Below, piece after piece: positions 50,552-58,389 of a DNA stretch of 64,000 nucleotides. Each line of letters opens with the position of its first letter. Position 1 is the stretch's first letter. The notes below the pieces were generated by a model. That model worked only from the letters and a program-made list of their open reading frames with translations, was not told the DNA's origin and did no database searches. The stretch is taken from positions 1 through 64,000 of the forward strand of contig CAVXJH010000005.1 of assembly GCA_963762115.1 (NCBI GenBank). The letters run 5' to 3'. The position numbers were made by a program, and so were the translations under genes. Source of the stretch: Candidatus Babeliales bacterium (lineage in GTDB: Bacteria > Babelota > Babeliae > Babelales > JANWKD01).

Positions 50552-50965
50552 TTAACTAATAATACAACGTTTTTTTTTAGATTTTTTATGCATTACCGCA
50601 ATAGAAACATCTGCAATAACTTTACCACCTCGATCATAGATCTTGCCATCACGCAAATAACGAGTAGGACGACTTCTTTGCAAAAAATCATATAATTGAG
50701 TGAAATCATTTTCATAAAAACTACCATCGTCAAAATACGTTATAGCTTTATGCGTGGTGCCATCAAATTTTCCGCGTAATTTTCCATCTTCATTAACGTA
50801 GACCGTCACTTTTCTTTGTTCGCTTGCCTTATTCATACGGTCAACACAAATAGTTTTATCAGAACGCCATTGCTTACATAATCTTTCACGCATGTCGTCC
50901 ATGCCAAACATTGAACCTACACTGAAAAAAATCACTATAAAAAAGAAATTTTTATAGCTCTTCAT
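50552..50965 (-). CDS. Secreted protein with polybasic CaaX tail
   Basis: Signal peptide; ends KKSKKKRCIIS. Confidence 0.7.
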   Translation of the reverse strand: MKSYKNFFFIVIFFSVGSMFGMDDMRERLCKQWRSDKTICVDRMNKASEQRKVTVYVNEDGKLRGKFDGTTHKAITYFDDGSFYENDFTQLYDFLQRSRPTRYLRDGKIYDRGGKVIADVSIAVMHKKSKKKRCIIS

Positions 50966-51021
50966 AGCATAACTCCCAAAAAAATAATGGTTTTTATTGT
51001 TCCATTCATACTAAAAAGATT

Positions 51022-51576
51022 TCAATTCAAAATACAACAACATTTTCTTTTTCTTTTTCTCAACAAGGCCATATCTTCTGAGTCTTGCAACATCGCTGTC
51101 ACACTTCCAACATTTTTGCTCAACTGCTCGTATTTTGCCAACCTCACTTCATCCGAATCGCGCTGCCCAAGTCTTTTGCCATTTTCTACAGGCATATATT
51201 TTCCTCCACACAAAGTGCCAATATTGTGTTCTTCATCTTTGCTCTCTAATCTAAGCTTAAATGCTTCATATGCAAGCTTTAACTGTCCTTCTGGAAATTG
51301 CATTACCACTCTTTTTTTTTGTATATCAAATTTTGCTATTAATTCCCCAGCACGCTTCACCTTAATCGTACCATCGACATATTCCTGTTGTTCTAAAATC
51401 TCTAATGCCTGTTTTTCTAAACCCCGCCAATGTTCAAAAAAAAGCGCATCATCAACATCAACGTTACTTAAAAACATTTTCTTTTTTTCTTCTTTTTCCA
51501 TGCCATACAAAGAGACAAAAATAAATGCATAGAACACACCATTACCAATCACAAAATAATTTTTAATCTTCATCAT
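51022..51576 (-). CDS. Secreted protein with polybasic Cys tail
   Basis: Signal peptide followed by ME; ends RKRKRKCCCILN. Confidence 0.7.
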   Translation of the reverse strand: MMKIKNYFVIGNGVFYAFIFVSLYGMEKEEKKKMFLSNVDVDDALFFEHWRGLEKQALEILEQQEYVDGTIKVKRAGELIAKFDIQKKRVVMQFPEGQLKLAYEAFKLRLESKDEEHNIGTLCGGKYMPVENGKRLGQRDSDEVRLAKYEQLSKNVGSVTAMLQDSEDMALLRKRKRKCCCILN

Positions 51577-51585
51577 TTCTCCTTA

Positions 51586-52041
51586 TTACCAACAAGAAAA
51601 ACAACAGCAACATTTTTTATGTTCCTTTTCTTCTTTATCAATAAAATGATCATTTTCTGTTGCATTGGAACCATCATCAATTTCATCTTCATCAATGGGC
51701 AAAGGTTCCTGCAATAATTCTTTGAACTTTTCATAAGGGTAAACACGTTCAATTCTTTTTTTTTCGTTTTTTGGATCAGGAATTTTAACTGATGCTTGTT
51801 GCCACAAACCATTAAAACTACCCACCGTTAGCTCTTCCTTATTATGCAAACTAACTGAATTTTTTGAAAGTAATGACTGTGCCATATATTCAGCAGCCTT
51901 TTCTTTTTTAGGAATCCATATTCTTTTAACCGCATCATCACATGCTTTTTGATAGGCATCAAAGTCATTCTCCATTGCATATGAAAAAGTAATTAAGCAC
52001 ATGAAGGCAAAAAAATAGATTATCTTTTTTTGTTTTTTCAT
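51586..52041 (-). CDS. Secreted protein with Cys-cluster tail
   Basis: Signal peptide followed by ME; ends KKCCCCFSCW. Confidence 0.7.
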   Translation of the reverse strand: MKKQKKIIYFFAFMCLITFSYAMENDFDAYQKACDDAVKRIWIPKKEKAAEYMAQSLLSKNSVSLHNKEELTVGSFNGLWQQASVKIPDPKNEKKRIERVYPYEKFKELLQEPLPIDEDEIDDGSNATENDHFIDKEEKEHKKCCCCFSCW

Positions 52042-53376: not shown

Positions 53377-54031
53377 ATGAAATTATTTTTAGACACGGCA
53401 CATCTTGATGACATACGAGCCTGGGCATACATGATTGATGGTGTCACCACCAACCCCTCACATCTTGCAAAAGAAAATAATGATCCCAAAAAACAAGTAT
53501 TAGAAATTTGTTCTGTTATGCATAACAAAGATGTCAGCGTTGAAATCACCTACACAGAACCAACGGCAGTCTATCAACAGGCACTAGCCCTTTCAAAACT
53601 TGCACCTAACATTGTTGTTAAAGTTCCTTGTCATCACGATTATTATCCGGTGATTGCACAATTAGTGCGCGATGGCGTCAAAATCAATGTCACTTTAGTG
53701 TTCACCCTTGTGCAATCACTCTTTATGTGCAAATTCAGGAGTTAGGTATATTTCTCCTTTCATTGGCAGATGGGATGATATTGATATTGATGGCACCAAT
53801 CTTTTATTTGAAATTCGCAGCATGATTGATCAATATAATTATAACACACAAATTCTTGCTGCTTCAATTCGACACATTCGTCACTTACATGAAACAATTC
53901 TTGCTGGCGCTGATGTTGCAACAATACCAGCATCAGTTCTTGAAAAATCATCCAATCATATTTTAACAAAAGAAGGAATGGAACAATTCAACGCCGATTG
54001 GAATAAACTTGGCCATCCATCTTTCCCTTAA
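53377..54031 (+). pseudogene. tal: Transaldolase / fructose-6-phosphate aldolase family, frameshifted near 53736
   Basis: LFLDTA, DGVTTNPS, VVKVP, NVTLVF, then GVRYISPFIGR and ILAASIR in a shifted frame. Confidence 0.85.
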
Positions 54032-54037
54032 ACCATT

Positions 54038-55227
54038 ATGAACAAAAAAATAGTATCAATATTATTTGTAACCAATAACTATACTCCTTATTCTGGTGGC
54101 GTTGTAAGTTCTATTTTTTTACATACAACAGCATTACGCAAACAAGGTCATACCGTCACTATTGCCACACTCGATTTTTTAAATACGCACCACCAACAAC
54201 AAGAGGAGCATGTCATACGTCTTTATTGTCCTATTCGCTGGATTATGAATACAAATCATATGGCAATCCCGTGGCAAGCAACCAAACAACTGGAACATCT
54301 TATAGCAACATTACAACCCACCATTATTCATGTTCACCATCCATTTTTACTCGGCACTGCTGCAAGCCGTGTCGCTCGCAAAAAAGAATACCTCTTGTGT
54401 TCACCTATCACACTCTTTATGAACAATATGTACATTACATACCCTATATTCCTCACCTCATTTCCAAACAAATGGTTACTCACCTAGTAAAAAAATTCTG
54501 TAACAACGTTGATGGTATCATCGCTCCAAGCAGCATTGTTGAAGAACAATTACAACAGTCACAGATTAAAACTAAAACAGCGCGGATACCCAGTGGCGTT
54601 GCAGAGCACTTTTTTTCTGCCATGCCGCGCTTGCCAAAACAACCATCAACAAAAATACAACTGCTCAGCGTCAGTCGATTTGCAAAAGAAAAAAATATTA
54701 CTTTTTTACTCGATGTTGTTGCCGCTCTTAACCCAACACAATTCAACACAACGTTTATTGGCTACGGTCCAGAAAAAAATAATTTAGAACGGTATGCCTT
54801 TCATCACAAAAAAATTTCTCCTCAAGCAGTTCAATTTATCGAAAGACCATCAAAAGAAATACTCTTACATGCTTATTATGCCGCCGATATTTTTATCTTT
54901 GCTTCAAAAAGTGAAACGCAAGGAATTGTTTTGGCCGAAGCTATGTCACAAGGAACACCTGTTGTTGCTGTGCATGGTCCTGGCCAACGTGATCTGATCG
55001 AACAAGGGAAAAATGGCTTTTTAGTGCACACTCAACAAGACATGCAAACGGTTCTTGAATATATACACGCAAATCCCACGCTGCTTGCCTCATTACAGCA
55101 CAATGCTTTTGCAACAGCACAGAACTTTAAACCGGAAATAGTTACGCAGAAATTAATCGACTTTTATTATGACGTTATTAATCATTATTCTACGAGCCCA
55201 AAAAGAAATTTTGAACTTATCTATTAG
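54038..55227 (+). pseudogene. GT4 glycosyltransferase, frameshifted at the A6 run 54380-54385
   Basis: NNYTPYSGGV, HVHHPFLLG, then VFTYHTLY, RFAKEKN, SETQGIVLAEAM. Confidence 0.85.
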
Positions 55228-57627: not shown

Positions 57628-58389
57628 TTACTCTTGTGGAATACCATCCAAGTGGATTTGTATTTTTTGAATCTGATTTTCTAAATCTTGAATTTGATCA
57701 GCGCTAGCAGTGCCACTCGCTTCTAAATCTGCTAATTGCGCACTTAAATCATCTAATCGTGTCGTTAACATGTCATAAATTTCATCCCAATTTCCATCTT
57801 GTTGCAACACAACTAATGAATCATCAAATCCTAAACCATAACCATAGTAAGGATAATAACCACCCCAATATTGATTAATAGCAAGGGCTGATAATATTCC
57901 TAAGCCAAGCCACAAGCCACCAAAGCCCCAGCCCCAGCCGCCTCCCCAGCCACCGCCACGGAATGCACCATGACGACCTGCAATACCACGACCGCCATGA
58001 CGTCCACGACCTGCACCGCCACGTCCACGACCTGCATGTCTACCAGCACCGCCACGCCCACGAGCTCCAGCCCTAGTTCCTGCTCTACCTCTAGCGCCTG
58101 TTCTTGTACCCGCTCTTCGAGTTCCTGTCGCTCTTGTTCCCGCTCTTCGAGTTCCTGCTGCTCTAGTTCCAGCTCTTCGGGTTCCTGCGGCTCTTGTACC
58201 TGCACGGCGAGTTCCTGCTGCTCTAGTTCCACCAGCGCGACGGGCACCACCAGCTCTCATGCCACCGCCACGCATGCCACCACCACGCATGCCACCTCCG
58301 CGTCCGCCGCCGCCGCCACCACCACCTCTTCCATCAAGCTGTGGAATCACCAACAGCACCATAAGAATCGATAAAACTATTTTTTTCAT
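57628..58389 (-). CDS. Gly/Arg-rich low-complexity exported protein
   Basis: Signal peptide, RGG tracts, (RRAGTRAAGT)n repeats, GW/YG-rich segment, C-terminal coiled coil. Confidence 0.8.
   Translation of the reverse strand: MKKIVLSILMVLLVIPQLDGRGGGGGGGGRGGGMRGGGMRGGGMRAGGARRAGGTRAAGTRRAGTRAAGTRRAGTRAAGTRRAGTRATGTRRAGTRTGARGRAGTRAGARGRGGAGRHAGRGRGGAGRGRHGGRGIAGRHGAFRGGGWGGGWGWGFGGLWLGLGILSALAINQYWGGYYPYYGYGLGFDDSLVVLQQDGNWDEIYDMLTTRLDDLSAQLADLEASGTASADQIQDLENQIQKIQIHLDGIPQE

Follow-up and report, generated by a model that had tools for sequence, protein, structure and literature searches.

Candidate host-lipidation signals at the C-termini of a family of signal-peptide proteins in a Babeliales-related genome

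Three small, co-oriented ORFs, designated A, B, and C, are encoded on the minus strand of a stretch of 64,000 nucleotides, the whole of which is referred to here as the window; they are flanked by an HD-domain gene and by the end of leuS (Table 1). Their products appear to begin with a bacterial signal peptide and, in the case of B and C, to end like Ras-type hypervariable tails, which occur in a polybasic type (K-Ras4B) and a palmitoyl type (H/N-Ras). The question raised by this locus is why bacterial proteins should carry both kinds of ends. The explanation preferred here, to which a probability of about 75% was assigned, is that A, B, and C are Sec-exported effectors that would be prenylated or palmitoylated by a protist host and anchored to membranes. 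The source genome (G000; 1.53 Mb, 95% complete, 34% GC, 1,381 proteins) was regarded as Babeliales-related, since the best matches of its leuS were titled Candidatus Babeliales and Dependentiae.

Locus, gene models, and C-terminal tails

In all three predicted proteins a basic and hydrophobic N-terminus is followed by Met and an acidic residue (ME at residue 23 of A, ME at residue 26 of B, and MD at residue 22 of C), so that the original description of three secreted-type ORFs with a signal peptide preceding ME or MD was borne out. Signal peptides were called with a heuristic of our own (basic N-region, hydrophobic core, and no later transmembrane helix), and the class sizes given below are therefore approximate. 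The pattern [AGSC]-M-[EDQN] was found after the hydrophobic core in 186 of the 552 signal-peptide proteins of the source genome (ME, 125; MQ, 29; MN, 17; MD, 15), and this class is abbreviated SP+M[EDQN]. The internal Met was considered as the true start and was ruled out, because a Shine-Dalgarno (SD)-like motif is located upstream of the signal-peptide start in 123 of the 186 genes and upstream of the post-signal Met in 2. These counts, together with the SD-like motifs ahead of B and C, support the long starts; no clear SD was found upstream of the long start of A.

The three tails read as had been claimed and, as a class, exceed chance. The statement that all of them resemble eukaryotic lipidation signals held for the CaaX ends of B and C, which have Cys at position -4 from the C-terminus; A has only a Cys cluster and no Cys at -4, so a canonical CaaX is present on only two of the three genes. 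The CFSCW end of A is a possible longer CaaaX substrate, and palmitoylation is the simpler reading.

Table 1. Features of the A-B-C locus, with positions in the window.
Feature	Position	Strand	Description
Gene A	51586..52041	-	151 aa; signal peptide predicted at aa 1-22; mature start ME
Domains of A			distant copy of family domain, ~aa 37-111; acidic linker; Cys-cluster tail without -4 Cys
Tail of A, KKCCCCFSCW	51589..51618	-	candidate multiple S-palmitoylation site; non-canonical as CaaX
AAGGAG, upstream of B	51579..51584	-	Shine-Dalgarno-like
Gene B	51022..51576	-	184 aa; signal peptide predicted at aa 1-25; mature start ME
Domains of B			family domain, ~aa 38-111; polybasic-CC-CaaX tail; C-terminus RKRKRKCCCILN
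Tail of B, RKRKRKCC-CILN	51025..51060	-	polybasic stretch, two extra Cys, and CaaX
GGGAG, upstream of C	50973..50977	-	Shine-Dalgarno-like
Gene C	50552..50965	-	137 aa; signal peptide predicted at aa 1-21; mature start MD; convergent on leuS
Domains of C			family domain, ~aa 24-97; small beta extension; polybasic-CaaX tail
Family domain within C	50675..50896	-	predicted structure, pLDDT 88.7
Tail of C, KKSKKKR-CIIS	50555..50587	-	polybasic stretch and yeast Ras2 CaaX

Three other genes of the window were recorded. The plus-strand gene at 53377-54031, presumably transaldolase-like, is broken at about codon 120, where the frame changes, and is intact (217 aa) in the genome G001, and represents either a pseudogene or an assembly error. 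The gene at 54038-55227 on the same strand, which we take to be glycosyltransferase-like, is split over two frames and is also intact (386 aa) in G001. The minus strand at 57628-58389 encodes a signal-peptide protein that contains a long low-complexity region rich in Gly and Arg, and G001 has one too.

Paralogy of A, B, and C and conservation of the tails

Profile comparisons of the sequences showed A, B, and C to be distant tandem paralogs with a common domain of approximately 75 residues that had not been described previously. B was aligned with C over 59 columns (hhalign 91%, E 9e-7). A profile from which A and all tails had been excluded matched A at E 0.0012 among the 1,381 proteins, with the best reversed control at 0.29, and the body of A matched members with Cys-cluster tails, e.g., P0082 (E 2e-4). 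The placement of A depends on the larger profile only, as pairwise profile tests were weak (E 0.002-0.19; A' vs B, E 0.13). The proteins had been described as mutually dissimilar and as an effector cassette, and on these matches they form a tandem array of paralogs, not a set of unrelated effectors.

The domain model of C consists of two helices, a small meander of three or four beta strands, and one helix. Searches for a described counterpart of the family domain gave no Pfam, PDB-sequence, or fold match: the Pfam scan of A, B, and C was negative for each, fold searches returned nothing at E <= 0.001, the best PDB sequence matches (E 0.018, EF-hand proteins) were judged to be chance, and the Atlas comparison gave no usable feature match, with whole-protein TM below 0.5. 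The family alignment contains no invariant column, and two family genes of the genome G171 hold four to five tandem copies of the domain each; on these grounds the domain is most likely a membrane-displayed binding module rather than an enzyme, which is the least certain part of the interpretation.

When an iterated domain profile was run against 261 genomes of the phylum, members were found in 9; a tenth genome had a weak profile match without a usable ORF. Cys at -4 was present in 20 of the 29 family genes of the 9 genomes (family f1, 15/17; family f19, 5/6; family f3, 0/6), a count that includes two near-identical G003 copies and leaves out one weak match at E 0.018. The six f3 members, all without the -4 Cys, are spread over two genomes. 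Family genes are often arranged in tandem, as in G004 (three genes, ending in CIIS, CSLQ, and CTLQ), G250 (two, ending in CTIL and CAIL), and G171 (C5:114000-118000; L261, L268), where four tandem genes have no CaaX. The fourth member in the source genome (L247, C6:10408-10779) has the C-terminus KKRCAVQ.

A tail-free profile search of 1.84 billion proteins yielded 102 representatives, not assigned to taxa, among the weakest of which at least one is doubtful (P0109) and some are possibly fragments. Cys occurred at positions -1 to -6 in 0, 0, 5, 40, 13, and 18 of them, respectively, where 1.2 were expected. The a2 residue was I, L, or V in 40/40 representatives with the -4 Cys (20% background), and X was S in 10, Q in 8, L in 4, N in 4, and another residue in 14. 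Among the 73 representatives with less than 50% identity to any profile row, the -4 Cys was found in 20 (0.9 expected), with a2 I, L, or V in all 20. For the 86 members with an N-terminal hydrophobic stretch, CaaX was present on 30 of the 54 with a post-signal M[EDQN] vs 2 of the 32 without it, an association whose p-value is overstated because relatives are not independent. These data establish the retention of the -4 Cys and an aliphatic a2 in very divergent members, and the coupling of the tag to the signal peptide and M[EDQN] start. A tree of 22 rows was poorly resolved: 3/19 branches had good support, and the number of label changes, 5, did not fall below that of shuffles. No conclusion was therefore drawn on gains or losses. 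Separately, P0090 has a C-terminus similar to the Cys-cluster tail of A, and the tail of P0111 resembles an alternative-frame reading of the same region of A, which suggests a frameshifted tail.

Extra Cys or at least two Lys or Arg residues, i.e., a second membrane signal, lie upstream of the tag in 36 of the 40 tagged representatives. This fits anchoring and is unexpected if the tail were instead an unlipidated peptide recognized by the host, whether it served prenyltransferases or C-terminus binders as a decoy or docking motif or became active only after rupture of the vacuole at lysis. Such a peptide would accord with the 62 of 102 representatives that do without the -4 Cys and with the indirect nature of the case for a route to the cytosol, and is considered unlikely.

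Conservation of the tails in orthologs, the lack of which had been named as refuting, gave a mixed result. It was observed for B in all five B-type relatives read (P0001, P0004, P0012, P0017, and P0018) and for C in P0015 (70% identity to C), which ends in KKKRCVIS; it failed for C in the G001 lineage, where the tail is absent in 5/5 full-length orthologs. The G001 locus is syntenic: its B ortholog ends in KKKKCWCCSLN, the gene in the place of A ends in CSCWGCCLY, and the C ortholog has no CaaX and a long tail that overlaps the end of leuS. A frameshift concealing a CaaX in this ortholog was rejected, as the DNA shows no Cys-bearing alternative frame and the long tail is shared by five independent proteins. 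With regard to the neighboring gene, leuS matches with many internal stops were noted in G003 (C1:814100-817300) and G004 (C1:392900-395400), and a second, broken leuS copy adjoins a duplicate family gene in G003.

Distribution of the tag within and among genomes

A proteome-wide CaaX excess among signal-peptide proteins had been suggested as a further check and was obtained: in the source genome, the -4 Cys was found in 19 of the 186 SP+M[EDQN] proteins vs 2.8 expected, with 1-5 at other positions (15/142 in the first-pass set of the class). The corresponding counts were 9/366 for the remaining signal-peptide proteins (5.5 expected) and 17/829 for proteins without a signal peptide (10.9 expected). 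The pattern C-x-[VIL]-[SQ], which was picked post hoc once the data had been seen, forms the C-terminus of 17 of the 1,381 proteins vs 0.44 expected from internal rates, and the broader C-x-[VIL]-x that of 27 vs 4.3 expected, none with L as X. The Cys-less analogue of C-x-[VIL]-[SQ] was not enriched (9 vs 6.7 expected), and none of 1,061 unselected ORFs had the Cys-containing pattern. Basic charge upstream of CaaX was only marginally enriched genome-wide (p 0.049). PTS1-like (3/552) and KDEL-like (0/552) ends were not enriched among signal-peptide proteins, and terminal lysine motifs were uninformative, being enriched also among non-secreted proteins.

An effector cassette limited to the locus is not what these counts describe, as the 27 C-x-[VIL]-x genes fall into 16 sequence clusters and form only three adjacent pairs. 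A few of the clusters are housekeeping-type chance cases. Domain scans of 24 CaaX carriers identified ankyrin repeats in 6, WD40 in 3, Skp1/POZ alone in 1, and NADAR in 1; of the other 13, 2 had weak unrelated matches only and 11 had no match. The same tag is thus carried by unrelated ankyrin, WD40, and NADAR proteins. CIIS is the end of seven proteins, and its synonymous codons vary among unrelated carriers, which rules out a mobile or copied DNA cassette as the source of the tails. Two genes (C3:33816-34391 and C3:380015-381307; L238, L242) encode a Skp1/POZ-like N-terminal domain, in one case with WD40, and end in CTTS and CAIS; their products are possible membrane-anchored ubiquitin-ligase adaptors. 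A repeated ORF ending in GELCKA, present in at least five copies including C5:37250, is probably a multicopy mobile element.

The tails are very unlikely to be functionless at present, whether as accidents of AT-rich DNA, as remnants of eukaryotic genes once acquired, or as copies of a single DNA cassette. The genome is AT-rich (34% GC), some of the -4 Cys proteins are of housekeeping type, and the tag was lost in several lineages, all of which suit such an origin; yet the -4 peak is position-specific and requires Cys, unselected ORFs are blank, codons differ, and in the family the tag is kept at approximately 17% mean column identity and across very different linker lengths. The genome and family controls largely refute this origin.

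Other genomes were sampled over 200-400 kb each, and the -4 Cys was counted in SP+M[EDQN] proteins. It was found in 4/34 in G001, two of these from the homologous A-B-C locus, and in 2/39 in G003, one from that locus. More distant Babeliales gave 1/26 (G022), 0/28 (G020), and 1/24 (G014), and 29 titled Babelota leuS loci gave 2/37. In the pool without G001 and G003, C-x-[VILM]-[SQLM] ended 4 of 724 signal-peptide proteins vs 0.46 expected, and C-x-[VILM]-x ended 5 of 724 vs 2.2 (p 0.07). The excess is thus strong in the source genome and weak or absent in the samples of more distant Babeliales, and the CaaX trait is most pronounced in the family to which the source genome belongs. In the samples taken from G016 and G009 there were 0 and 1 SP+M[EDQN] proteins, and in 19 non-Babelota loci the class was absent and none of 238 genes had the -4 Cys, so the class appears to be lineage-specific within the order.

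The distribution also bears on whether the tag might be a bacterial sorting signal similar to MYXO-CTERM, in which the Cys would be lipidated by a bacterial enzyme, trimmed by a CPBP (Rce1-like) protease, and displayed at the surface by type II secretion. In the myxosortase system, Sec and type II secretion act together with a CPBP protease and an invariant Cys (PMC11980579), and one Rce1-like protein is encoded in the source genome, two genes away from a gene ending in CIVQ. However, sorting tags include a transmembrane helix, and 0/27 tails in the source genome reach a hydropathy of 1.6 over 19 residues. The Rce1-like family was present in 15 of 20 genomes and 11 of 14 control genomes and does not track the tag: it was not found in G249 and G250, where 5/5 family members end in CaaX, whereas G171 has six Rce1-like matches and four family members without the tag. 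The a2 and X pattern instead fits eukaryotic prenyltransferase rules, and the carriers hold eukaryote-like domains. A sorting tag is accordingly judged quite unlikely. An Rce1-like domain is also part of a protein of 1,128 aa encoded at C7:138571-141957 of the source genome, and similar frames of 1,115-1,160 aa occur in 10 of the 20 Babeliales genomes searched.

Proposed export and host modification, and comparison with known systems

The search for type II/pilus parts covered secretins, GspC, and ATPases and identified two secretins, one GspC, and two GspE/PilB-type ATPases in the source genome; two secretins have also been reported for the phylum (PMC4776705). Searches of the genome, which is 95% complete, for the secretion markers FlhA, VirB4, and VipB (type III, IVA, and VI) were negative with positive controls. 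Among the systems covered, Sec plus type II is supported as the sole export route with markers found, and the proposal of Sec-dependent export is supported by the heuristic signal peptides and these type II genes. A search for PF00432 (prenyltransferase) was blank, with its control silent as well.

The prenylation prediction that had been proposed as a check was performed by look-up. All of the 18 family motifs looked up were positive with a yeast SVM predictor, for which the base rate is about 33% of 8,000 motifs, and 15 of the 18 were PrePS-positive (PMC9231725). For CIIS, the yeast Ras2 motif, both prenylation and cleavage have been observed in yeast, and CILN and CLVS belong to the positive training set of that study (PMC9231725). 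By their behavior, the tails are supported as selected host-prenylation signals, and lipidation of the family proteins by a host is likely, given signal-peptide proteins that often end in a eukaryotic CaaX.

Under the preferred reading, family proteins would be exported by Sec and then passed through the type II system, with the signal peptide cleaved just before the Met, and would enter the cytosol of a protist host, the site of prenyltransferases. Host enzymes are predicted to prenylate B and C and to palmitoylate A and the extra Cys of B. The polybasic stretch or the palmitoylated Cys would constitute a second membrane signal, and the lipids would anchor the three proteins to a host or vacuole membrane. 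Access to the cytosol is plausible, although no other step of this reading is weaker. In Legionella, the vacuole is semipermeable and is crossed by type II substrates on their way to the host cytosol (PMC5478897); Babela is reported to have a type II system only and to grow in a vacuole (PMC4378268), and Chromulinavorax replicates in the cytoplasm with vesicle shedding (PMC6561590). If the vacuole is intact, type II delivery would stop at the vacuole lumen, which counts against the preferred reading.

A broader proposal is regarded as tentative and somewhat doubtful: a two-ended address, in which a Sec signal peptide and a eukaryote-like M[EDQN] start exposed by its cleavage, with an optional CaaX or Cys-cluster tail, would direct needle-free delivery to the cytosol. 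The M[EDQN] start, which resembles NatB acetylation sites and the processed N-terminus of Plasmodium PEXEL proteins, may then mark a protein for host delivery or stability.

Signal-peptide proteins fill a large share of the small genomes of Dependentiae, and their arrival in the host cytoplasm has so far been assumed, type II being the only system known. CaaX prenylation is a cytosolic process, so a selected CaaX on Sec-type proteins constitutes sequence evidence for crossing, and a prenylated peptide would serve as a built-in translocation reporter in cultured Babeliales infections. The proposed interpretation would make Sec/type II cargo, in addition to needle-injected effectors, a target of host prenylation, define a candidate effector class by signal peptide and Met-acidic start, and add a small domain family not described before. 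The X residue varies (S/Q vs L) and some lineages have lost the tag, and both differences may follow the host or the compartment.

Effectors of Legionella and Salmonella are established substrates of host prenylation (PMC13081727, PMC2916131, PMC4951486), and CaaX proteins of 20 pathogens and one endosymbiont were compiled in a 2010 screen. In the literature reviewed, host prenylation is known only for proteins injected by type III or IV systems. The mostly open-access literature searched contained no report in which host prenylation was tied to this phylum or to signal-peptide/type II cargo, and no paper with both 'Dependentiae' and 'CaaX'. Babela massiliensis and Chromulinavorax destructans have expanded sets of signal-peptide ankyrin and other secreted proteins; the words 'prenyl' and 'farnesyl' are absent from the main text of PMC4378268, PMC6561590, and PMC4776705.

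Among individual systems, MYXO-CTERM/myxosortase likewise joins a signal peptide and a C-terminal Cys to type II secretion and a CPBP protease, whereas the tails described here have no transmembrane helix and the distribution of the protease does not match that of the tag. C has the CIIS of yeast Ras2 with a polybasic stretch, and B adds two Cys; unlike Ras, A, B, and C are not GTPases, having no Pfam match. Salmonella SifA is prenylated and S-acylated at its C-terminus, as predicted for B, and LpdA is palmitoylated at C-terminal Cys, as predicted for A (PMC4951486, PMC13081727). In contrast, SifA and the palmitoylated LpdA and GobX are delivered by type III or IV systems and have unrelated domains. 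The Legionella pneumophila proteins AnkB and PelA, C, D, E, H, I, and K are prenylated Dot/Icm (type IV) effectors that are likewise CaaX-tagged. The sequence and Pfam searches described above revealed no relation of the present family to them. Its members instead have signal peptides of Sec type followed by a Met-acidic start of the mature protein, and the searches of the source genome for type III, IVA, and VI markers were negative. The -4 Cys of the Pel/AnkB/SifA class is present in B, C, and 40 of the 102 representatives, and delivery by injection is, on the type III and IVA markers, the feature not shared. On this comparison, the family would work like the Legionella Pel effectors and stand outside that class by its route of delivery.
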